Source of the DNA: Kiritimatiellia bacterium
GTDB lineage: Bacteria; Verrucomicrobiota; Kiritimatiellia; RFP12; UBA1067
Direction: 5' to 3'
Length of the DNA stretch: 64,000 nt
Assembly: GCA_017403825.1 (NCBI GenBank)
Contig: JAFRDO010000014.1
Coordinates: 629-64,628 of the forward strand
The notes beneath the pieces are model-generated. The model saw only the letters and a list, made by a program, of their open reading frames with translations. It was not told where the DNA came from and ran no database searches. Each line of letters begins with the position of its first letter. Positions within the stretch are counted from its first letter, which is position 1. The translations under genes were made by a program, and so were the position numbers. Shown in pieces: positions 22,538 through 34,682 of the stretch.

Positions 22538-22800
22538 AGGTATGTTCCTTTACCATGTCGTGGATAATCGGAGTTGCGTCAGAAATGGCTTAAGAGGTAG
22601 AGAAGCACCATGTGGTCAATGTAGGACCTCATGGCCAGGATGTCGAATTCCACCGAAACCGTCAGCCAGTCGGTGATGTCGTAGCTGTAGAGGCCGCCAA
22701 AGCCCCAGATGGCCTTCCAGTCGGTGTCTAGGTCGTATACGGACCTGAAGGAAGATGAGGGGATGGAAGAGGATTCTTCGGAGGAGTCGGAGGATTCCTT

Positions 22801-22836
22801 GGCTCTCTCAATCTCCCTGGCTCTCTCAATCTCCCG
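22801..22836 (-). repeat. 18-bp tandem duplication (2 copies, 1 mismatch) inside the barrel-coding part
   Basis: GGCTCTCTCAATCTCCCT followed by GGCTCTCTCAATCTCCCG. In frame it encodes the AREIER AREIER duplication. Confidence 0.9.
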
Positions 22837-23400
22837 GGCGACGTTCTTGTCGTCCAGCGAAAAGCCTCCGCGCCCGTCGCTCTTAGCGAAGCCGCCAACG
22901 ATGTCGGCCCGGAACCGCATCTTGTCCGAATCCGTCTCGTAGCGCAGCACGCCCAGCGCGCGCTTGTCCCAGTAGGGCGTCCAGTAGAAGTCGCTGGCTT
23001 CGCTCGTCGTGGTGGTGTTGAATCTCAGGCCGTACCAAACCGTCGGCATGGACTCGGAGGACCACATGGACTCGAGGTTTATGAAGTACATCGCGTTGTC
23101 GTCACTGTAGGTCCAGTACTGCGTACGACCGGACAGCTTCCAGTAGTCGGACGGCAGCCACTCAGCCATGAGGGCGAGGGAGTCGTACGTGACGTCCTTT
23201 ACGGCCGAGGCCACGTAGTCGTGGTCGAAGAGCGACATGACGGAGAAATTGTCCTCGGGGTTCCACCGGGCACCGAAGGAAAACACCACCTCGTCGTTCC
23301 TGCGCATCGGCGTGAAGATGCCGCTGTTGCGGTGATCCTGCAGGTTCGCGTAATCCACGTACGCGTAGCTGCCGGAGTAGTCGGGCTTGCGCGCCGACAG

Positions 23401-23408
23401 CCCCCCCC
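23401..23408. repeat. Homopolymer C8 (G8 on the coding strand) at the frameshift site
   Basis: Read directly: ...gccgacag cccccccc gagccg.... Confidence 0.95.
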
Positions 23409-26404
23409 GAGCCGAAGAGAAACACCCCGGAATCGAGGCGCCAGTTCATGCCCAAGCGCCAGTCGTCGGTGTCGGCCTTGAACTTGTATATCGACTCCCC
23501 GTAGGTCACGTCGGTCATCGTCCGCGCGTTCCAGTAGGGCCGGACGGTCTGCTTGATCTCGCCCTTGTGGTATTCGCCGTACAGACCGACCCGGTCGTTC
23601 CAGTTGGCCCCGGCCTTCCCGCCGTACCTGACGATCTCCACCTGGTCGTTGGCCTTGGTGTGGGAGATGTCGATCTGCCCGTAGGGATGGGCGGGATCGA
23701 ACCAAGGCTTTTCCTTCTCCTCGGACATCTGCCACTCGAGCTCCGACTCGCGCAAGTTGCCCGCGACCTGCTTCGCCCCCACGTCTTCGCCAGGATCGTT
23801 CCGGCGGATCGTCGTGTCGTTGCGGTCGTCGCGCTCCGCGTCGTGCGCGGACGTCCCGCCCGAGACCGTCTCCAGCAATGGGCGCATGCTGGCGGAGACG
23901 CGGTTGCGGAAGCGGTGGCGGATATTGTAGTCAAGCTTGGTGCACAGGTCTTCGGGATAGCCGTCCTTGCGCAGGCTGGCCACGATCTTGTTCGCCTCGT
24001 TCGGCTGGTTGAGGAGCATCGCCAGCTCGGCGCGCATCCGGCGGCCGAGGAAGTAGGGATGGAACTCATAGGCGTGCCGGACGACGTCCTCGCCCTCGTC
24101 CGCCCAGCCGGGCTCGTAGCGGCGCGCGATCATCGGGTCGTCGCCGGTCACGGTGAAGCCGGTGGTGCTCTGCACGAAGCCGAGGCTATAGGAGCAGGCG
24201 GCCTCGGAGATGATGCTGTCGCTGATCGAGCGCTTGGCGCTGATGTTGCACGCGCCAACCTGCCCCACCGAACCGAGGGGGTAGGCCACCATGGCCACGG
24301 CACAGTCGTTCGAGCCCATCTCCCTGCGGATCTTAGCGCGGCTATCGCGGAACTCGTGGCGTATGCGCCGGTCCCATTCGTTCATCGACTCGATCCGGTT
24401 GCGGTCGGCCTTCCACAGGCGGTTGTACAGAGGGTCTCGCATGTCGTCGCCCTCCTTGTCCACGGGCGCCTTCTTGTCGCCGGAGCGGAGCGAGGATCCG
24501 ACGATCCAGTTGCCGGTGTCGGCGTACTGGCGTATCTCATCCCACCCAGGCCTGCTTGGCTCGAAAGATTCCGGTTCATCGGATGGGGTGAACAGCGCGA
24601 AAGGAACGCCGAACTCCTCCGCGACACGGGTGCCCAGCACCATTTGCGAGCGGCGGGCGGTGTCGAACGTCACCGCGAAGGTCAACCGGGGGCCAAAGGA
24701 ATCCTCGTCATCCATGCCTTCTTCGTCCTCGTCGCCGGCATCGTCGTCTTCATCCTGCCCGGATCGCTTGCGCGCGCGGGCCTTTCCCGTCTCCTGAGTT
24801 TTCTTCTTGAGGTAATGCCGGCCCGTGATCATCCAGCCGATATGGTCGAAGAACTTCGCCGGGAGAGGCGCTTCCTCCTCGTCATCCTGCTCGTCGACGA
24901 GATGCCGCACTTTCCGGCGACCGTCCTTGGCGTTTTTTGCGGGGTTCCTCGCGGCGCCGATGATCCGGGGGATCTCGTCCGCCGATACCAGCTCCCAGCC
25001 GGCTCGCTGCAGCGAACGGATGTGCTCCGTCAGGCGTCTCACGCTCGTCTGCGGCATCCAGTCGCTCTCGGTGAGGTTGGAGTACTTGAGCGTCAACACG
25101 GAGCCCTTCGAACCCGCCTCTTCGAGCCGTTTCGCCTCCGCCAACGCCTTGGCGTATTCGCCCTGTGCGGAATAGAGGCGCGCGCGGTAGTAGTGTATCA
25201 TCGGGTCGTCGCGGTCGAAATACTTGAACCACTCGCGCAGGACGCGCTGCGCGGCATCGAAGTTCCGCTCCTTGACCTCCACCTCGAAGAGCATCGCAAG
25301 CGCCCGCACGTCCTGGTGGTTGTACTTGAGCAGGACGTCCTCGATCTGGCTGCGGCAGATGTTCAACCGATCGGACTGGTAGCAAAGCTCGGCCAGGAGC
25401 TCGCGCGCCTGCATGTTCAGGGGATCGGCCTCGACCGCCTCCTGCAGCCAGTCGATGATCGTGTCGGTCTTGTAGCGCTCGGGGTTGTCCCGGTTGATGG
25501 CCACACACCGGCCCGCGAGCCGGGTGAGGTACTCCGCGCGCATGAGGCGGTTGGTGGTCGCCTCGATAAGCGTCATGAGCGGGGTCACGTCCTCCTGGCC
25601 CGAGATCTCCGCGATATCGGCCCGGAGCCGCATGGCCGCCATGTTATCGGGATCCAGCTCGAGAATCTCCCGGCAAAGGCGGTCGGCTTTCTCCAGCTCG
25701 CCCACCCGCAGCTCCAGCGTGGCCTGCTCGAGTTTTATGAGGGGGTTGTCCGAGACGAGTTCCGCGATGTCGTGGTATATCTTGAGCGACTCCTCGTCCT
25801 GAAAGCGGTTCGCAAGCATCTGGGCGTAGGTGCGCTGGATGTCGACGCGGTCGGGGTTCTCCTTGACGAGCCCCTTCAAAACCGCTTCGGACTCCTCGAT
25901 CTCGCCCAGTCGCATCAGGTTCTGCGCGAACGAGTATTTGAGGTCGTAGTCCCGCGGATTGATGGCAAGGGCCTTGCGGAAGGCCTCGTCCGCCTTCACC
26001 CAGTCCTTCTCGAGGATCTCGTACTGCGCGACGAGCGCGTGGGGCTTGGCCTTCTCGGGCATCAGGTCGCGCATCCGGAACCACAGGTCGCGTGCGCGTT
26101 TCTGCTGGCCGGTCCGCACGTAGCACCAGCCGAGGCCCTCCCAGCCGGCCTCCAGCGCGGGGTCGCGCGAGATAGCCTCCTCCAGGTAGGGGATGGCATC
26201 GGCGAACTCCTCCTCCTGAACGCGCTCGAGTCCGTGATACAGGAGCGCCTGGGCGGGCGTTACCTCCGAGACGTCCGTCCGGCGGGACTCTTCGATCACG
26301 CGATTGAACTCGTCCTGGATGGTAGCGGCGCAAGCCGAACCGGCGGCCAGGAGCAGCGCCATCGCGATTGTCCGTCCAATTATCCTCATCGTGCCTCCTG
26401 CGGG

Positions 26405-27139
26405 TTACTTCTTGTCGGGCCAGTAGGTCCTTAGCACGTCCTCCGCGACGACTTTCGCGCCAGGGAAGGTCAGGTGGATGCCGTCCGTGTCGCGCACCGT
26501 GACCGCCGTACCCGTCTTGGAGATGATGGTCTGGGTGTAGCGTCCCGGCCGGATCGTGAGCACCTTGCCCATGTCGTACCTGTGGAACCGGTCACGGTAC
26601 TTCTCGTCGCCCGCAATCTCGGCGACGATGCCGGCGACGAGCTGCAAGTGCTGATCGTTGGTCTCGGACCTCATCGGCGGCGTAAGCATCCACACGATGT
26701 GGGTTACGCCGCTCGCGTAGAGGGCGTCGAGAAGCTCCTCGATGCGGCACTTGTACTCGACGCGCCACTCGTCCGTCCCCACCACGGCCATGCTGCCCGT
26801 ACGGCTCTCGAGGCTCTGCCTGTCGTTCGTACCCAGAGAGATGAACGCTGTCTTCGGCTTTATCCGCCCGCAGAGTTCCTTTGCCTTCGACGGCCAGTTG
26901 AAGACCGACGGCCGGGCAAGTCCGGAACCGAGCGACGAGAATGACTCGGCCGGGGTCACTTCCTTCGCCTTGAAGGCCTTCTCCATGCCCTTGCCGAGCA
27001 TCTTCATCATCGAGTCGCCGATGAAAACGACGGGCGTGTCGAGCTTGACCGGCTCCCCAATCTTCGGAGTGTCCGTCTCCGCGCCAGTCGCCGTAATCGC
27101 CGCCATCAGGACGGCCGCAGCCATGAGTCTCCTTGTCAT
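26405..27139 (-). CDS. Periplasmic SGNH/GDSL-family hydrolase/acyltransferase (DUF459-like; AlgX/AlgJ/PatB-type role)
   Basis: The frame is that of ORF 26405..27160. ATG 27139 is preferred (RBS AAGGAAGG). Signal peptide MTRRLMAAAVLMAAITATGA. SGNH blocks: FIGDSM, SLGSGL, ISLGTNDRQ, DTDGIHLT. Confidence 0.7.
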   Translation of the reverse strand: MTRRLMAAAVLMAAITATGAETDTPKIGEPVKLDTPVVFIGDSMMKMLGKGMEKAFKAKEVTPAESFSSLGSGLARPSVFNWPSKAKELCGRIKPKTAFISLGTNDRQSLESRTGSMAVVGTDEWRVEYKCRIEELLDALYASGVTHIVWMLTPPMRSETNDQHLQLVAGIVAEIAGDEKYRDRFHRYDMGKVLTIRPGRYTQTIISKTGTAVTVRDTDGIHLTFPGAKVVAEDVLRTYWPDKK

Positions 27140-27172
27140 TTTACCTTCCTTGTTTTTCATTGCATGTTTTTG

Positions 27173-27433
27173 TTATTGCGGGTCATCCTTCTGGTCGAGC
27201 CACCGCCCGCGAACGCACGCGGCTCCCCGGCGGAGAAAATCAAGCCGGAGCATCGCCGAGAGACGTGCGACAGGACGCACGAGCGACTTCGTCGCGTCGC
27301 GGGCAACTCCGTAGTCCATGTTCTCGGCGTTCTTCTCCATCGCCGGCGCGTTCATGAGCACCGCAAGCGCGTAGAACACGGCAAGGCCGGCCGCCGCCCG
27401 CCAAGTCGCATTTTTTCCTTCAGAGTCCTTCAT
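27173..27433 (-). CDS. Small membrane protein between the MBOAT and SGNH genes
   Basis: ATG 27433 is preceded by GAGGGAGG. There is one hydrophobic segment (AAAGLAVFYALAVLM). Its position matches the small partner proteins of MBOAT systems (positional inference only). Confidence 0.45.
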   Translation of the reverse strand: MKDSEGKNATWRAAAGLAVFYALAVLMNAPAMEKNAENMDYGVARDATKSLVRPVARLSAMLRLDFLRRGAACVRGRWLDQKDDPQ

Positions 27434-27446
27434 GTCCACGCCTCCC

Positions 27447-28931
27447 TCAGAACTGGAAATAGATGAACGGAGCCACGCCTTCGGGGGCGAGTCCCAGGAT
27501 GATGGTAAACACGACCGCCGCCAGGCCGCCCTGCACCCACGCGGGCCATCTGCGCACGCGGTCGGTGAGCCAGGCGAGCCGCGCTCCGTCGCAGAGCTGC
27601 AGGGCGAAGCCAGCCGCCAGCACCACCGCGCCGGCCGTCACCGGCAGCGTAGACTCCGCGCCTACGGCCCTGAACGCATTGAGGACCCCCTTGAAGGTCT
27701 CCATGCCGCCTGCGGAACCCGCCCTGAAGAGTATCCACAGGAAGGCGACCACGTGGAACACGAATATCCGCGCAAGCCACTTCGGCGGGCGGAAGGAAAC
27801 GATGCGGCCGAGCATGCGCTCCACCGCCAGCAGCGCGCCGTGCAGGATCCCCCACAGCGCGAACGCCCAGCCCGCCCCGTGCCAGAGTCCGCCCAGGAAC
27901 ATGGTGAGCATGAGATTCGCGTAGGTTCTCGCCTTCCCCCTGCGCGAGCCGCCCAGGGGGATGTAGAGGTAGTCGCGGAGCCACGACGAGAGCGAGATGT
28001 GCCAGCGGCGCCAGAACGTCTTGAAGCTGTCGGAGAAATAGGGCGCGTCGAAATTGATCGGGAACTCGAAGCCCAGCAGCAGTGCGCAGCCGATCGCGAT
28101 GTCGGAGTAGGCCGAGAAGTCGCAGTAGATCTGCAAGGTGTAGGCGTACACGCCCATGAGTGCGTCGATGGCGCCGAATTCCTCCGGCATGGCGAAGAGC
28201 GGGTCCGCGAGGTTCGTGGCGAGGTAGTCCGCGATGACCATCTTCTTGATGAGCCCCAAAAGGATGAGCACGCCCGCACGCGCAGTATCCAGCCTCGTCT
28301 CCGTCCCCGGCAGGTTTTCCATCGCCGGGATGAGGTGGCCCGCACGGACGATCGGCCCGGCAACGAGCTGCGGGAAGAAGGCAAGGTAGTTCGCGAAGTC
28401 GATCCAGCGCCTCGCGGGCTTGACCTCTCCGCGCGACACGTCGATCACGTAGCTCAGCGCCTGGAAGGTGTAGAAGGATATGCCCACAGGGAGGACGATC
28501 ATGTCCAGAAACGGCTGCGCCGACTCCAGGAAGGCGATCCACGCATCGCCTCGGCCAAGCCAGCCGGCCACCTTCACCCCCAGCGGGGCGACCGCCCCGT
28601 TGAAGAGGAATCCCGTGTACTTGAAGAACACGAGCACCCCGATGTTGAGCGAGACTGCCAGCACCACCGGCAGTCGGCCCGCCTGCGCCCCTCTCCCGGC
28701 CATCCACAGGGCGAAACCATGGTTGATGACGGAAGACGCGAGCAGCATCAGCGCAAACGGCCAGCTCCACCAGCCGTAGAACACAAGACTGGCGGCGAGC
28801 AGCACCAGCTTCCTCAGCGAGACGAACCCGTTTTCGCTGCCTGCATGCCGCTCCGCCAGTGCCGCCAGGCCCCAGTTGAGGCCGAAGACGACCGCGAAGA
28901 ACACGGCGAACGTCAAGGTCGGGAACAGCAT
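27447..28931 (-). CDS. MBOAT-family membrane O-acyltransferase (AlgI/DltB/PatA-like)
   Basis: The frame is that of ORF 27447..29012. ATG 28931 (MLFPTLTFAVFF...) overlaps the upstream stop by 1 nt (TGATG). MBOAT hallmarks: GISFYTFQALSYVIDV, FWRRWHISLSSWLRDYLYIPLGG, GGLWHGAGW. Confidence 0.85.
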   Translation of the reverse strand: MLFPTLTFAVFFAVVFGLNWGLAALAERHAGSENGFVSLRKLVLLAASLVFYGWWSWPFALMLLASSVINHGFALWMAGRGAQAGRLPVVLAVSLNIGVLVFFKYTGFLFNGAVAPLGVKVAGWLGRGDAWIAFLESAQPFLDMIVLPVGISFYTFQALSYVIDVSRGEVKPARRWIDFANYLAFFPQLVAGPIVRAGHLIPAMENLPGTETRLDTARAGVLILLGLIKKMVIADYLATNLADPLFAMPEEFGAIDALMGVYAYTLQIYCDFSAYSDIAIGCALLLGFEFPINFDAPYFSDSFKTFWRRWHISLSSWLRDYLYIPLGGSRRGKARTYANLMLTMFLGGLWHGAGWAFALWGILHGALLAVERMLGRIVSFRPPKWLARIFVFHVVAFLWILFRAGSAGGMETFKGVLNAFRAVGAESTLPVTAGAVVLAAGFALQLCDGARLAWLTDRVRRWPAWVQGGLAAVVFTIILGLAPEGVAPFIYFQF

Positions 28932-31900
28932 CAGTCTTCCCGCCCCCTTGGCATGACCACTATGATCGGCTTCGCTCCCGTGCGGCCCGTGCCGGCGGGA
29001 GCGGCCTTCCACTTCTCGAATTTCTCAGCCTGGGTCGCCCAGGTCGCCTTGCCCGTCTGCAGATAGACACTGCCGCGCTGGAGCTCGTGCAGCACCACCT
29101 TGGCGTCGGCCTGCACGGCCTCCGCGAGCGGCTTGTCGCTCTGGATCAGGATGACGTTCGCGAACATGGCCTCGAGCGCCTTCTCCATCTTCGCGCACCA
29201 CTCCTCCTCGGGGAGCCGCCTCACCCGCAGGCACAGGCCATCGAAGCCAGCCTTCTTTATGTAGGCGATGACGTCCGCAGGTTCGGGGTCGTTGTAGTAG
29301 CCGAGGTCCACGACCGGCATGAGCCGCAGACGGTGGTAGCGCGTGAAGACGCGCAGACTGTCTAGCGCGCGAGCGTCTGGAGAAGAGAGGGACCGATCCA
29401 CCGCCTGCTGGCCGACGACCGGCGCAATCACGCCCACGTCGCCCGCCCGCCCGCGCAGGGCCTCGAGAACGTCGTGCGTCGGCGCGGGGTCGGAGGTGCC
29501 GTCCTCCCTGACGGTCGGCAGCAGGTCCATGACGACGATTGTCGGGTTCATCGGGCCGGACGACAGCACCTTGATGCGCGTCTGAGCCATGCCCGTCTCG
29601 GATGCGGAGGCCGCCACCCCCCACCAGCCATAGCCGAGCGCGCGCGGAATATCGAGGGGCGTGGAGAACGCGGGATTGCCGTTGACATAGCCGATCGCAC
29701 CGTCGCCGCGGATCTCCAGCCGGAGCGTGAGGTCGTCTTTCGGACGGACCCACAGGACGCTGTCCAGCACCCGTGGCTCGCCGTTCTGCCATGCCTGAAT
29801 GCGCAGGAATCCGTCGCTGTCGAACCCGAAGCGCACCATGCCCTGCGTCGAGCGCCGCGCATAGAGCCAGAACGCGCCGAGCGACTCGCCGATCCTCGTC
29901 TCCAGGAACCCGTCGCGGAAGAGGTCACTGCGCTTGAGCCTCAGGTTGGTCTCGGATGGGTCGGGCAGGCCCGGCAGCAGGTATTCGCCGCCGATCAGCG
30001 CCCCGTTGTTGCCGAAAACCTCCCAGCTGTCGGAGAGACCGGACTCCGAGAAATTCTCGGTAACGGGCTGTTCGAGCGGCATCAGCGACATGTAGTTGCG
30101 CCGCACCAGGCCGTTCTTGGAATCCCTCGCCACGCGCCGCAGGAAGTCGAACGCCGCGCTCGACTCCGGGAACGTCAAGATCCCGGAGTCCTCGATTTTG
30201 CGGCGGAACCACATCAGGTTCTGGCTGTTGGGCGCGACCATGCCGATGATGTGCAGCAGGTTGTCGTAGCGCTCGGACGCCTCGTTGAGGTAGTTGTGCA
30301 GTGCCACCCTGATGTCGATGTTGCCGGGCTGGCGTCCGACCCAGTCCTCGAGAATCGCGCGCGCGTCCGCGCGCAACCCCTTGTGGTCGAGCCAACGCGC
30401 CTGCGCGAGGGCGATCTCGCGGTTGAGGGGGAAGGCCTTCGCGTACCTGTCCAGCATCTCGCGCGCCTCGTCCTCGGCCTTGCCGGTCGTCATCAGGTAG
30501 TCGGCGAAGGCCGTCACCACGCCGATTCGCCCGGGGTCGAGTTCGAGGGCCTTCCGGTAGGCCTCCGCCGCCTCGTCGCCACGCGTCTCGCGGACGTTCA
30601 GCCTCGCCTTGTATTCCCATGCGTCCGCGCTCGTCGGCATCGCCTCCGTCCAGCGCTTGGCGACGGCGTCAGCCTCAAGGAAACGGCGTTCGGACAGAAG
30701 CCGCTCGGCCCGGACGGCGAAGTCCGGATCGCCGGGGTTCGAATCCTGCGGCTTCGCGTCGATCGTCGCGAGCTGGTAGTAGTTGACGGCGCCGTCCTTA
30801 TCGTTCGGCACCACCGGCAGGAGCCCGTGCATGCGCTTCCTGAGGGCGGGCGTGACCTCCGAGCCGTCCGCAGCCACCACGATCACGCCCGGCAGCGTGT
30901 CAAGAAAGCCCACCGCCAGGCTCCCCGCCACGAACGACGCCGGGAACCTGACCGCTACCGGCATGTTGGTACACTCCGTATCCTTGCGGAACGACGCGAT
31001 CCAGCTGCGCATCAACGGCAGGCTCGTCTCCTCCAGTTCGCTCGCGTCTACGTAAAGCCCCGCGAACCCGCCGTCCTTGAACGCCTCCGCCGACGTCTCC
31101 CGCGGGATGTTGCCGAACGGGTTCTTCCCGGAAAGCTTCAGCCGCGGCCATACGCCGCAGAACGCCTTGGCCGCCTCGATCTTGATGACGTCGAGATCCT
31201 CCACGAGCTGGAAGCCGGCCATGCCGTCGCTCGCCGAAAACCACGGCGGCGCGATTCCGTCGTACCTGAAGGCCTGCCGTTCAAGCTCCGCGAAGACGTC
31301 CGTCTTGTCGCGTATCGACTCTGCATCCCAAAACGCGAAACGCGGCAGCGGCGCCCTGAGACGCGCGGATATGATCTCCACTTCCGCCTCGCCGGGATGG
31401 CCGCTCCATACGCCCGCGCCGACGAATCCTGGCCTGGGCCGAGGGTTCCCAAGGCTCACGCCCCCGCCGAAGAGCACCCGCCCGTCCAGCATCGAGAAGA
31501 GCGCGCCGCTGCGCGTGATGAGAACGAGCGAGTGCTCGCGGCCCGTACCGATGGGGGATTCCAGGAATTCAACGGCCAGCCTTTCGCCGGCCGTGCGTCC
31601 CGGCTGGTTGCGCGTCAGGATGACCGAGCTGTCCGTTCCGAACGTGAGCATCACCGCGTCGTCTTCGGCCACGTAGTTCAGGAGCACGGTGAAGCCGCCA
31701 CCATCCATGCGGAACTTGATTTCAAACGAGCCTTCCGCAAAGGCGTTGGATCCCATCACCAGCGCCTTCGAGCCGGTGGTGGAGCCTTTGTCTGAGACGA
31801 TCGGGTCGTCCGGGGCCTTTGCCCGCAGGTAGACGGAGGGGCTGTTGGCGTCTGGCATGCACTCGCCCCAGATCGCGCGCCACCTTTCCTTTCCCACGTC

Positions 31901-32944
31901 ACCCGCCTTCGGCGGGTCGTTCCAGCCGCCGGGTATCTCGCGCGGCCACACGCCGTCAAGGATGCGCACCAGCTCGTCGGCGCTCCACGCGGGATCCACC
32001 TTGAGCCGCGCGAGGCGGCGCGGGTCGGAGAGAGCGTCGTTGTAGCCGAAGCCGTCGATGATGAACCCCATTTCGTAGAAGTCCTCCACCGCCTTGAGGT
32101 TGGCTTCCCGCAACGGCTTGTTGTGCGCCTCGAACTGTCCGTAGTTCCCCATGGGGAAGAAGAACGCCCGCGCCGCGCATCCGAGCGTGTTCGTGAAAAA
32201 CGAAACCGCTGCAGCATGGTCGGCGCGGATGCGCCTGTCGAACTCCTCCGGGGTTTCAAATCGCGAAAGATCCGGCAGCCATGCGGGCGCGGAAAAGAAC
32301 ATCGCCGTTCGCCCGTCCGCGCCCGCAGTGACCTCTCCCGTGCCGTGGTCGGACTCCGCCGCCAGGTCCCACGTGGGGTTTGATTTCATGCGCTCCAGGT
32401 ACGGCGCGAGGATGACCCCTTCCGACTCCTTGCGCACGTCGTCCGTCACCACCCCCATGACGGCATGCCAGCGCCTCTTCTCCAGCAGGCCGCCGGCGGT
32501 GAAATACGAGCTTCGCCGCGAGTTCTCGAACGTGATCAGCAGCGACTTGGCGGGAAGGAGGCGCTTCTCCTTGTAGAACCTCGCCACGTCGTCGAGCGTG
32601 ATCGGGGTGTACCCCGCCGCCATCAGCGCGTCTAGCTGCGAATTGAACTCCTTCGTCGAGACGAAGTCCCCGCCGGCTTCCGGATTTGTCGTGACGCCGC
32701 CGTAGGCGATGGCCACGAACGAATCGCTCGCGCGCTTTGCCATGTCCAGCGCCGCCCGCTCCGTGCGCTCACGCTGCTTCCAGTAGATGCTGTTGATCAC
32801 GCCCCATGTCGCCACCCCCAGACACACGAGGCCAAGCAACACGAGCCAGGCGGTGCGGTTCTGGTCCTTGCGCATCGCCTGCGGACGCGCCCACCCGCTG
32901 CCCGGCATATTGGCGGAACTGGTTTTTTCCGGATTCTCGCTCAT
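28931..32944 (-). CDS. Giant (about 1337 aa) membrane-anchored periplasmic protein: PgaB-like CE4 domain with variant motif, beta-sandwich/LamG-like regions, TPR block, hydrolase-like C-terminal region
   Basis: The frame is that of ORF 28931..33052. ATG 32944 (MSENPEK...) forms an ATGA overlap with the GT2 stop. TM segment AWLVLLGLVCLGVATWGVI. PgaB-like N-domain (STKEFNSQLDALMAAGYTPITLDD...SLLITFENSRRS). TPRs (AEAYRKALELDPGR...). The C-terminal fold call is inference only. Confidence 0.7.
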   Translation of the reverse strand: MSENPEKTSSANMPGSGWARPQAMRKDQNRTAWLVLLGLVCLGVATWGVINSIYWKQRERTERAALDMAKRASDSFVAIAYGGVTTNPEAGGDFVSTKEFNSQLDALMAAGYTPITLDDVARFYKEKRLLPAKSLLITFENSRRSSYFTAGGLLEKRRWHAVMGVVTDDVRKESEGVILAPYLERMKSNPTWDLAAESDHGTGEVTAGADGRTAMFFSAPAWLPDLSRFETPEEFDRRIRADHAAAVSFFTNTLGCAARAFFFPMGNYGQFEAHNKPLREANLKAVEDFYEMGFIIDGFGYNDALSDPRRLARLKVDPAWSADELVRILDGVWPREIPGGWNDPPKAGDVGKERWRAIWGECMPDANSPSVYLRAKAPDDPIVSDKGSTTGSKALVMGSNAFAEGSFEIKFRMDGGGFTVLLNYVAEDDAVMLTFGTDSSVILTRNQPGRTAGERLAVEFLESPIGTGREHSLVLITRSGALFSMLDGRVLFGGGVSLGNPRPRPGFVGAGVWSGHPGEAEVEIISARLRAPLPRFAFWDAESIRDKTDVFAELERQAFRYDGIAPPWFSASDGMAGFQLVEDLDVIKIEAAKAFCGVWPRLKLSGKNPFGNIPRETSAEAFKDGGFAGLYVDASELEETSLPLMRSWIASFRKDTECTNMPVAVRFPASFVAGSLAVGFLDTLPGVIVVAADGSEVTPALRKRMHGLLPVVPNDKDGAVNYYQLATIDAKPQDSNPGDPDFAVRAERLLSERRFLEADAVAKRWTEAMPTSADAWEYKARLNVRETRGDEAAEAYRKALELDPGRIGVVTAFADYLMTTGKAEDEAREMLDRYAKAFPLNREIALAQARWLDHKGLRADARAILEDWVGRQPGNIDIRVALHNYLNEASERYDNLLHIIGMVAPNSQNLMWFRRKIEDSGILTFPESSAAFDFLRRVARDSKNGLVRRNYMSLMPLEQPVTENFSESGLSDSWEVFGNNGALIGGEYLLPGLPDPSETNLRLKRSDLFRDGFLETRIGESLGAFWLYARRSTQGMVRFGFDSDGFLRIQAWQNGEPRVLDSVLWVRPKDDLTLRLEIRGDGAIGYVNGNPAFSTPLDIPRALGYGWWGVAASASETGMAQTRIKVLSSGPMNPTIVVMDLLPTVREDGTSDPAPTHDVLEALRGRAGDVGVIAPVVGQQAVDRSLSSPDARALDSLRVFTRYHRLRLMPVVDLGYYNDPEPADVIAYIKKAGFDGLCLRVRRLPEEEWCAKMEKALEAMFANVILIQSDKPLAEAVQADAKVVLHELQRGSVYLQTGKATWATQAEKFEKWKAAPAGTGRTGAKPIIVVMPRGRED

Positions 32945-34488
32945 CCTCTCGTACCCCATTTCTTGCCGTCCAAAGTCAGGAAGCCCCAGTAGGTCTGCCA
33001 GCCGAAGAAGAAGATGTAGGAAAGCGTGAACAGGATTCCGGCATACCACCACCTACGGCCGCTCGTGATCCAGAAGTGGAGACACCACACCATCGTGATC
33101 GTGAGCACGCCGATCACATACGACGGATGCAGTGCCCCTTCCTGCAGGGGCGCAATGATAAGCGCCTGCACCATCACGACGGGCTCGGCGATCGGCATCC
33201 ACATCATGGCGTACCACGAAAGCGCGGGAACGGGGTGCTTGCGCCACATGAACTTGCCCGTCTTCCAGATTTCGCGCAGATAGGACCTCACCCACCGCGC
33301 CTGCTGGCGTGCGTACTGCTTCCACCCCTCGGGGCAGATCGTCGTCGCGAGCGCCTCGTCGTCGTAAATGATCTTGTAGTCCTTCAGGATGAGGTTCGTG
33401 AGCGAACGGTCGTCGGCGTAGTTCCCGTGCTCGCCCCAGACGGTCGCGTTGATCCAGTCGTCCATCACGGCGAGGACGCACGTCCGCCTGTACGCCGAAA
33501 AGCATCCGGGCAGGCAGCTCACGGTGCCGAATACGCTTTCGGCCGCCTTCATGATCTTGTACGAGAAGTAGTACCTCACGTCCTGCATCCGCGTGAGCAT
33601 GTTGACGTTCGCGTTCTCGATGTCGCAGTGGCCGGAGATTCCGCCCACCGTCGGGTCCACGAAGCCTTGCATCAGCTTGTGGAGCGAACCAGGGAAGACG
33701 AAGGTGTCCGAATCCACGCACACCATGAACTCGCCGCGCGCGAGGAACGTAGCCACCCCCCAGCCGTGGCAGAGGCCTCGGTTCTTCTCGAAATTCACCA
33801 GCACGAGCCCCGGATGGTTCGTCTGCGCCTCCTGGATGTGGACGAGCGAATCGTCCGAGGAGCCGTCGTTGACGCACACGACCTCAAGCTTGTCCAAGGG
33901 ATAGCCCGAGGAGAAGATGCGCTCCAGGGTCTTGCGGATCGCCTGGCCCTCGTTGAAACACGGCACCAGCACCGTCAGCGTCGGCTCGAAGTCGGCTTCA
34001 GCCGGCGCCTTGTAGAAGGCGGCGAAAATGAAGCGCGTGATCACGAAGGCGCCGGCGATGATGGAGTAGATCGACACGAGCGGCTGGTAGAAGTAGTTCT
34101 CGATGCTGTTCAGCTGCAGCGTCACCGCCCACGCCAGCAGACCCACCGCGCCGATCGCCACGATGATGCCGAATATGAAATGCGGGGGATGGTAGATCGC
34201 CTTCAGACGCGCCTTCACCTCTTCCGGCGAAGGCGGCTCCATCGACGGGGCGACCGGGCGCTCCAGCGTGCTCTGCACCATCGCCTGGCGGCAGTAGGGA
34301 CAGATCGTTGGCGGGGCCGTCCCCACGGTCTGGACGTCAATCAAACAGTGCGGACACCGACTGGAACGCACCTCCACCGAATCTCGGCGGCGGCTCCCGG
34401 AGACGGCGGGGCTGGGACTGGAACGCGTAAAAAAACTGCGCGTTCCCTCTCCCCCTGCCGTTGCCATCGATGTCATGCCGGTTGTCAT
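32941..34488 (-). CDS. Processive family-2 glycosyltransferase of the hyaluronan-synthase / NodC / chitin-synthase type, with an N-terminal C4 zinc ribbon
   Basis: 515 aa. CPHC...CPYC at residues 45-66. GT2 core: VLVPCFNEG, VCVNDGSSDDS, CVDSDT. HAS/NodC-type signatures: ADDRSLTN and QQARWVRSYLRE. Multiple C-terminal TM helices. Confidence 0.85.
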   Translation of the reverse strand: MTTGMTSMATAGGEGTRSFFTRSSPSPAVSGSRRRDSVEVRSSRCPHCLIDVQTVGTAPPTICPYCRQAMVQSTLERPVAPSMEPPSPEEVKARLKAIYHPPHFIFGIIVAIGAVGLLAWAVTLQLNSIENYFYQPLVSIYSIIAGAFVITRFIFAAFYKAPAEADFEPTLTVLVPCFNEGQAIRKTLERIFSSGYPLDKLEVVCVNDGSSDDSLVHIQEAQTNHPGLVLVNFEKNRGLCHGWGVATFLARGEFMVCVDSDTFVFPGSLHKLMQGFVDPTVGGISGHCDIENANVNMLTRMQDVRYYFSYKIMKAAESVFGTVSCLPGCFSAYRRTCVLAVMDDWINATVWGEHGNYADDRSLTNLILKDYKIIYDDEALATTICPEGWKQYARQQARWVRSYLREIWKTGKFMWRKHPVPALSWYAMMWMPIAEPVVMVQALIIAPLQEGALHPSYVIGVLTITMVWCLHFWITSGRRWWYAGILFTLSYIFFFGWQTYWGFLTLDGKKWGTRG

Positions 34489-34585: not shown

Positions 34586-34594
34586 CCCCCCCCC
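34586..34594. repeat. Homopolymer C9 (G9 on the operon strand) upstream of the operon promoter
   Basis: Read directly: ggaata ccccccccc accttc. It lies ~45-55 nt upstream of the putative -10. Confidence 0.95.
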
Positions 34595-34682
34595 ACCTTC
34601 GGAGTTAACACAAAAAGCACGGAAAACAAGCAATTTCATTCCGTGTATTCTGTGTATTCAGTGGTTTTGCAATTACCTCCTA

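Follow-up and report, generated by a model that had tools for sequence, protein, structure and literature searches.

A seven/eight polymorphism in a short G tract splits the gene of an exopolysaccharide exporter in one clone of a gut Kiritimatiellia bacterium

The exopolysaccharide operon of a Kiritimatiellia bacterium from a ruminant-gut metagenome, contained in a 64,000-nucleotide stretch of a metagenome-assembled genome (MAG; GCA_017403825.1, contig JAFRDO010000014.1, positions 629 to 64,628, hereafter the window), includes a gene for an outer-membrane exporter that is split by a run of eight G, where near-identical strains carry seven. The eight-G tract is real and not an assembly error, as two assemblies of the source metagenome run and a second sample agree on it. 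It is a very recent +1 allele, presumably generated by slippage and confined to one clone that was encountered in two samples of one study. This allele is best seen, with better than even confidence, as a recent loss of function at a slippage hotspot, potentially open to reversion. It may be adaptive and may be reversible, rather than being an evolved and conserved switch.

The tract and its allelic states

On the coding (minus) strand, the frameshift site reads TTC GGC TCG GGG GGG GCT. The upstream open reading frame (ORF), 23162..26389, encodes 1075 amino acids and stays in frame through Ser994-Gly995-Gly996. With one G removed, reading continues in a frame that is open between 23400 and a stop at 22579 and reads LSARKPDYSGSYAYVDYANLQDH..., which gives a joined gene of 1269 codons plus the stop. 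The features of this gene are as follows.

22579..26389, minus strand: whole exporter gene, split in the window strain, with signal peptide, TPR region, PgaB-fold domain, linker and beta-barrel
25100..26272, minus strand: TPR region, about residues 40-430, with matches to Pfam TPR_19, TPR_16 and TPR_14
23891..25081, minus strand: PgaB/BpsB-fold (CE4-like) domain, about residues 437-833; it contains an acidic low-complexity insert
22579..23689, minus strand: C-terminal outer-membrane beta-barrel, from about residue 901 to the end, about 16-18 strands (coordinates include the stop codon)
23401..23408, minus strand: G8 homopolymer (C8 on the plus strand) at the frameshift site, formed by the last base of the Ser994 codon, the two GGG codons for Gly and the additional G
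23162..23400, minus strand: out-of-frame tail of the truncated product, 79 Arg-rich nonsense codons and then a stop at 23162..23164

When the G+C content at third codon positions (GC3) is calculated for each absolute phase, the two sides of the tract give 0.49/0.91/0.41 and 0.39/0.55/0.93. This phase jump at the G8 indicates that a strongly coding frame shifts by one base exactly at the run, and that the run does not merely coincide by chance with the end of an ORF. In the 8 G allele the downstream frame is fully open, with a GC3 of 0.85-0.93. Homopolymer runs of at least 8 are limited in the 64-kb window to this C8 and to a C9 at 34586..34594. The original prediction, made from the sequence alone, had pointed to the G8, the two split frames, the Arg-rich decay up to the stop at 23162 and the rarity of such runs, the only other one lying in the promoter of the same operon; all of these are borne out by the sequence, the ORFs and the GC3 phase jump. 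The joined gene of 1269 codons that it had proposed is likewise confirmed, and its product is colinear with more than 100 full-length homologues of 1185-1315 residues from Kiritimatiellae and Lentisphaerae metagenomes.

The state of the tract in natural populations was read from assembled contigs (Logan, with an assembler independent of that of the MAG) of metagenome runs, here labelled X1, X2 and so on. X1 is the likely source run of the window and holds 100% of the sampled words. The census of runs relied on a 91-nt query whose sampled 31-mers include words that span the tract; all words were present in X1 and X3 only, while the remaining holders reached at most 0.6. The tract states were the following.

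X1, one 25.9-kb contig with a word depth of 34, identical to the window: 8 G
X3, a different sample of the same study as X1: 8 G
X2, X4, X8 and X9, one contig each: one base fewer (7 G)
X5, X7, X10 and X13, two contigs each: one base fewer (7 G)
X36, a bovine metatranscriptome contig: 7 G

Every tract-covering contig outside X1 and X3 thus carries 7 G (eight further DNA runs and one RNA run, about 13 contigs), and no lengths other than 7 and 8 were found among the strain contigs. Indel errors are most common at homopolymers, the sequence comes from a MAG and G/C tracts also split several further genes in it, all of which would fit an organism with a true 7 G state and a miscalled extra G. The sequencing or assembly error that the original prediction had listed as an option is nevertheless disfavoured, to the point of being very improbable. 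The independent assembler returns 8 G for X1 and the same length recurs in X3, whereas X4 and X8, which share a study with X1, carry 7 G, so that the platform does not systematically miscall the run. Furthermore, a majority call of 8 G lies far above the indel error rate of Illumina sequencing, the chemistry that adapter remnants reveal for X3 and X7, and X1 contigs reproduce two further tracts at which genes of the genome are split, a C10 and a G9.

With regard to the age of the insertion, X3 shows an almost perfect match to the window across 7 kb and therefore represents the same clone. X9, which belongs to another study, differs from the window by 0-1 positions in many pieces, yet carries 7 G, as does X2, with about 0.6% differences. 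In several of the 7 G contigs, the roughly 120-150 nt that surround the tract do not differ from the window at any position (X5, X7, X9 and X10 have locally identical flanks). The 7 and 8 alleles hence reside on locally identical haplotypes, which indicates that the +1 G insertion is very recent and private to one clone. Of the possibilities that had been put forward for the split gene, a real, recent frameshift at a slippage-prone tract is supported by these haplotypes. The ratio of non-synonymous to synonymous substitution rates (dN/dS) in the part after the tract ranges from 0.40 to 0.92 when the window is compared with orthologues, and comparisons of the orthologues with one another give about 0.5; the barrel is fast-evolving throughout, and the lesion is too young to have left a trace of relaxed selection.

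The site was also compared among orthologues, as the original prediction had proposed. These were drawn from other MAGs and from metagenome contigs, the relatives being labelled as Kiritimatiellae MAGs. All 14 orthologous DNA loci, which share 85-89% nucleotide identity near the site, are in frame with an equivalent of seven bases, and the protein motif at this position among relatives is (V)FLFGS[GA]G. Conservation does not extend to the homopolymer, which is interrupted or replaced in 11 of the 14 loci:

L015, L017 and L018 (3 of 14 loci): G7
L025: G6T
L023 and L027: GGGTGGG
L014: GGGAGGG
seven of the 14 loci: GGCGGGG (Ala codon)

Judging from these sequences, the seven-base equivalent is the ancestral and normal state. 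The exporter gene was absent from all 24 same-genus GTDB species representatives that were searched and was found in seven other rumen MAGs, with 87-91% amino acid identity, which points to a patchily distributed, accessory operon.

Two in-frame length polymorphisms were also observed in the exporter gene: a TTC insertion at 22794 in X9, in a Ser/Glu-rich loop of the barrel, and a 3-nt deletion at 26263 in the strains of the RNA runs X36, X38 and X40. Transcripts of the gene occur in metatranscriptomes of the ruminant gut. A second frameshift in the operon, suspected at 27166 from a 1-nt difference in X2, was rejected because the site is intergenic; it lies between the gene for an 88-residue membrane protein and an SGNH gene that are in the same frame, with a stop between them.

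The exporter and the position of the break

The exporter begins with a signal peptide (residues 1-22). Its TPR part gives weak, partial matches to the PgaA, BcsC and PrsT models. The scores, which concern the TPR part only, are 24.6 and 19.1 bits for the PgaA models, against cut-offs of 1043 and 366, and 25.9 bits for the BcsC model, against a cut-off of 858, so that the protein does not qualify by sequence as a member of the PgaA or BcsC families. For the barrel, a weak match to the Pfam family OMP_b-brl was obtained. Sequence searches of the PDB with the middle domain and the barrel were uninformative, as a single sequence retrieved only noise and the full-length profile was swamped by TPR matches, and a fold search was thus needed.

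An AlphaFold2 model was available for residues 540-1265 of an intact orthologue with 91% identity (locus L023; mean predicted local distance difference test score, pLDDT, of 81). It comprises an alpha/beta domain, a disordered linker and a barrel of about 16-18 strands. Foldseek matched the alpha/beta domain to BpsB (5bu6, E 5.5e-8) and to PgaB (4f9j, 4f9d and 3vus), with E values ranging from 5.5e-8 to 2.6e-7, and the barrel to those of BcsC (9b8a and 6tzk) and PgaA (4y25). The architecture is therefore of the PgaA/BcsC type, with a signal peptide and TPR region followed by a C-terminal barrel of the PgaA/BcsC fold.

The middle domain has departed from the catalytic pattern of CE4 deacetylases. 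The clade of the window protein lacks TFDD and both of the His residues in motif 2, and has TFDT and GSSLRSGD in the place of the TFDD(G/A) and GSHL(Y/H)xAH of distant relatives. Consistently, PF01522 gave no match in the window protein or in its 91% orthologue, while the distant members P0078 and P0117 exceed the cut-off of 23.1 bits, with 34.2 and 33.3 bits, respectively. The motifs suggest that the so-called deacetylase domain of the exporter is most likely a non-catalytic, polymer-binding relic. Taken as a whole, the exporter family is a conserved and uncharacterised architecture of bacteria of the Planctomycetes-Verrucomicrobia-Chlamydiae (PVC) group, in which TPR, PgaB-fold domain and porin are joined in a single chain.

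In the AlphaFold2 model, the GSGG motif at which the frame shifts falls in strand 5 of the barrel. The break had originally been placed exactly between the periplasmic part and the barrel, a position that the model contradicts, as it lies inside the barrel. The expected product of the OFF state, a periplasmic TPR/deacetylase deprived of its outer-membrane pore, needs to be revised accordingly: the pore would indeed be lost with a break in the fifth strand, but the product would not be a clean TPR/deacetylase, given that it retains 4.5 barrel strands, ends in a 79-residue nonsense tail and has lost the CE4 metal residues. No second barrel gene or paralogue was found in the genome, which is 91% complete, and hence no other gene appears able to take over export.

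The sequence of events would be as follows. An ancestral G7 (TCG GGG GGG, Ser-Gly-Gly) would have gained one G through slippage during replication, and the resulting 8 G strain would synthesise a 1075-residue product, without a pore. Export of the polymer is most likely off in the 8 G lineage, while related species and other populations keep the frame.

The operon and the G/C tracts of the genome

The genes upstream of the exporter have the same orientation and are intact, as are the remaining genes of the operon. They include a synthase, and the operon is a synthase-dependent exopolysaccharide system of a poly-N-acetylglucosamine (PNAG)/chitin-like, putatively O-acylated type, with the exporter as its sole outer-membrane exporter.

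26405..34488, minus strand: upstream operon genes, all intact
32941..34488, minus strand: NodC/PgaC-like GT2 synthase, in the same orientation and with tight gene spacing
28931..33052, minus strand: 1373-residue membrane-anchored PgaB-like and TPR protein, with the PgaB-like motif TFEN
within 26405..34488, minus strand: MBOAT protein, DltB/PatA-like
within 26405..34488, minus strand: 88-residue membrane protein
within 26405..34488, minus strand: PatB-like SGNH acyltransferase
listed after the exporter, minus strand: receiver protein, KaiC-like protein and PEP-CTERM-type AAA ATPase
34586..34594, minus strand: G9 tract (C9 on the plus strand) in the operon's promoter region, preceding the synthase start codon by 98-106 nt

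The CE4 catalytic/metal motif is missing in both PgaB-fold domains of the operon (TFDT and GSSLRSGD in the exporter, TFEN in the 1373-residue protein). The polymer may be O-acylated, through the MBOAT and the PatB-like SGNH proteins, rather than N-deacetylated.

The promoter tract also differs in length between strains, with G9 in X1 and X4 and G6 in X2. Upstream of the orthologous synthase gene of two related species there is a C14 (L024, 1046..1059) and a C16 (L026, 419..434), the latter about 150 nt before the ATG; the upstream regions concerned are non-homologous, and the two tracts are the sole G/C runs of at least 8 across all the related loci that were fetched. Together with the G9, they indicate that long homopolymers recur at the promoter of this operon. 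The region upstream of the synthase also contains a multi-copy element of about 40 nt, AAAACCACTGAATACACAGAATACACGGAATG..., at 34638..34679. The depth of the X1 contig rises here from 34 to about 240-275, and many differently flanked contigs join at this point; it may be a dispersed promoter-associated or repetitive extragenic palindromic (REP)-like repeat.

At the level of the whole genome (3.9 Mb), G/C runs number 2105 for length 5, 235 for length 6, 27 for length 7, 15 for length 8, 8 for length 9 and 5 for length 10 or more. Their frequency drops about tenfold per added base up to 7 and then flattens into a heavy tail. There are about 21 interior tracts of at least 8. Intergenic positions account for about 10 of them, and at least three of the intergenic tracts closely precede genes with secretion signals. 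Five genes are split by interior tracts of at least 8, the exporter being one of them; the others are listed here by contig and position, together with one gene that is split at a shorter tract.

C14:73158: recC-like gene, C10, with an Exonuc_V_gamma domain that spans the tract
C24:2838: Flg_new surface protein, G9
C48:18089: secreted repeat protein, C8
C90:140083: 1379-residue membrane/NTPase-like protein, C15
C94:50433: FGE-sulfatase-domain protein, split at C7

The two tracts that X1 contigs reproduce, as mentioned above, are the C10 of the recC-like gene and the G9 of the Flg_new gene; the corresponding regions are absent from X9 and X2 and uncovered in X3. Other tracts are located directly before start codons, in the position of the ribosome-binding site, or encode Gly-Gly-Gly in the Sec/TAT signal peptides of secreted proteins (for example C24:38701..38708, C16:46396..46405, C62:58133..58141 and C51:57343..57350). 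Some of the long tracts are located at contig ends. Since a +1 insertion itself lengthens a run, the excess of runs of at least 8 is partly a matter of ascertainment. Relatives in the order also have many G/C runs of at least 9. Overall, the tracts of this genome are suggestive of a possible tract-based repertoire of variation. An explanation in terms of a mutator strain was considered and is unsupported, given that the genome has both MutL and MutS1, the latter with domains I and V in a single 795-codon frame.

Recent loss, switch or recoding

The frameshift might alternatively belong to a true phase-variable (contingency) locus, in which G7/G8 reversibly toggles the exporter at high frequency, together with the promoter tract, and in which each state has its own favourable conditions, with pressure from phages or host antibodies set against adhesion or protection, for example. 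Several observations are in keeping with such a switch. The length of the tract differs between strains on near-identical haplotypes, mutable repeats are present both in the frame (G8) and in the promoter (G9), the promoter tract varies between 9 and 6, and C14 and C16 occur upstream of the orthologous operon in two species. Genes for surface polysaccharides are a classic class of targets, and the genome as a whole has the heavy tail of G/C runs and further genes split at G/C tracts, including some for secreted proteins. The distribution of the alleles, however, argues in the opposite direction, as there is one OFF clone against about 13 ON strain-level contigs and no OFF allele in any of the 14 orthologous loci. 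Only the lengths 7 and 8 occur, the tract has not been kept as such in orthologues (G7 in 3 of 14 loci), the mismatch repair genes are intact and the coding tracts of at least 8 are subject to the ascertainment effect described above. On balance, a high-frequency reversible switch seems unlikely. The same level of doubt applies to a broader version of this idea, namely that rumen Kiritimatiellae use G/C homopolymers as contingency loci, with the exopolysaccharide operon as a two-tier example (the promoter tract plus the intragenic G7/G8 in the sole pore) within a wider set of tract-bearing genes, several of which are split at tracts of 7-15, in a genome where runs of at least 8 are over-represented.

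A different proposal is that the frame is restored during expression, either by slippage of RNA polymerase or by a +1 ribosomal shift on the G run, so that a truncated periplasmic protein is made alongside the full-length exporter. By analogy with known homopolymer slippage, the G8 would let tRNA-Gly re-pair perfectly in the +1 frame, or allow one G to be lost from the transcript, and the downstream frame is indeed fully open and strongly coding. Nonetheless, every relative encodes the protein in one frame, which leaves no conserved programmed event, and the open downstream frame is already accounted for by the youth of the mutation. Moreover, G/C runs of 8 are poor slippage sites in comparison with long A/T runs. 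A stimulatory element was not seen either, though no search was aimed at one. A functional 8 G allele through recoding is thus highly improbable.

A recent loss-of-function allele is therefore the reading that we favour, with four points weighing against it. Contigs drop minority variants, and a 7 G minority within X1 or X3 would favour phase variation. The length-polymorphic G9 of the promoter, together with the C14 and C16 of relatives, suggests selection for variable expression of the polymer. Low-level transcriptional or ribosomal slippage on the G8 could leak some full-length protein. Finally, G tracts of 6-7 have been accepted as reversible switches in other GC-rich bacteria (PMC11898584; bioRxiv 10.1101/2023.04.27.538605), which provides precedents for a switch based on a tract as short as this one.

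One of these precedents is glpK of Mycobacterium tuberculosis, where a 7-bp poly-G tract gives rise to reversible frameshift phase variants (PMC11898584). Both cases involve an in-frame run of seven G in the coding region of a GC-rich bacterium, the gain or loss of one base by slippage (a mechanism that we infer for the exporter) and OFF alleles that are natural polymorphisms among otherwise near-identical strains. In contrast to glpK, where indels recur often on the phylogeny and revert experimentally, the exporter has one OFF clone, and unlike the mycobacteria, which are devoid of MutS/MutL, the window genome has both proteins. In wxoA of Xanthomonas oryzae, slippage from a G-hexamer to a G-heptamer generates variants that revert (bioRxiv 10.1101/2023.04.27.538605); as in the exporter, the affected gene serves a surface polysaccharide of a GC-rich bacterium, and a single G added to a short run of G brings about a premature stop. 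The wxoA variants were selected in stationary-phase cultures and their reversion was demonstrated, whereas the exporter allele comes from a metagenomic snapshot.

With regard to the polymer, a parallel is found in icaC of Staphylococcus aureus, where slipped-strand mispairing acts as an ON/OFF switch of PNAG (PMC4117637). In both systems a repeat inside a gene of a PNAG-type operon shifts the frame and turns polymer production off, in our case by prediction. The icaC repeat is a tetranucleotide in an inner-membrane modification gene of a Gram-positive bacterium, while the one described here is a mononucleotide run in the gene of an outer-membrane porin of a diderm; reversibility and a fitness trade-off have been demonstrated in staphylococci. 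The poly-G/C contingency loci in capsule and lipooligosaccharide (LOS) genes of Campylobacter, Neisseria and Haemophilus (e.g. PMC8355987, PMC5084427) resemble the present case in having G/C homopolymers in or upstream of surface-glycan genes and heavy-tailed tract lengths genome-wide. As a rule, however, those tracts are longer (8-13), are retained as tracts and vary within a single culture, while here the ON length is 7 and the tract is not conserved among orthologues.

As for the protein itself, the exporter resembles E. coli PgaA (TPR and a 16-strand porin) and BcsC in having TPRs ahead of a C-terminal barrel for polysaccharide export and in sharing its operon with a PgaC/NodC-like GT2, and E. 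coli PgaB, a CE4 deacetylase, in the fold of its middle domain. It departs from all three in that TPR, PgaB-fold domain and barrel are fused in one chain of 1269 residues, the CE4 metal ligands have been lost in the clade, the family-model scores are far below the cut-offs and an MBOAT and PatB-like acylation pair has been added to the operon.

In the collection of papers that was searched, none ties Kiritimatiellota to phase variation. The allele described here offers a clean natural case in which a short homopolymer disables the exporter of a surface polysaccharide, within a single clone of an uncultured bacterium of the gut. In practice it is a warning as well, in that a frameshift in a MAG can be the real biology of one strain and not the state of the species. 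The recurrence of long G/C tracts at the level of the operon deserves attention. If the locus were indeed a switch, repeat-mediated phase variation, so far known mainly from pathogens, would extend to Kiritimatiellota, and selection on the PNAG-like polymer would be expected to fluctuate in the rumen, driven for example by phages, host antibodies or adhesion. Should the two-tier arrangement prove true, it would be the first repertoire of phase variation based on simple sequence repeats (SSR) to be described in the phylum, and in an uncultured commensal of the livestock gut.

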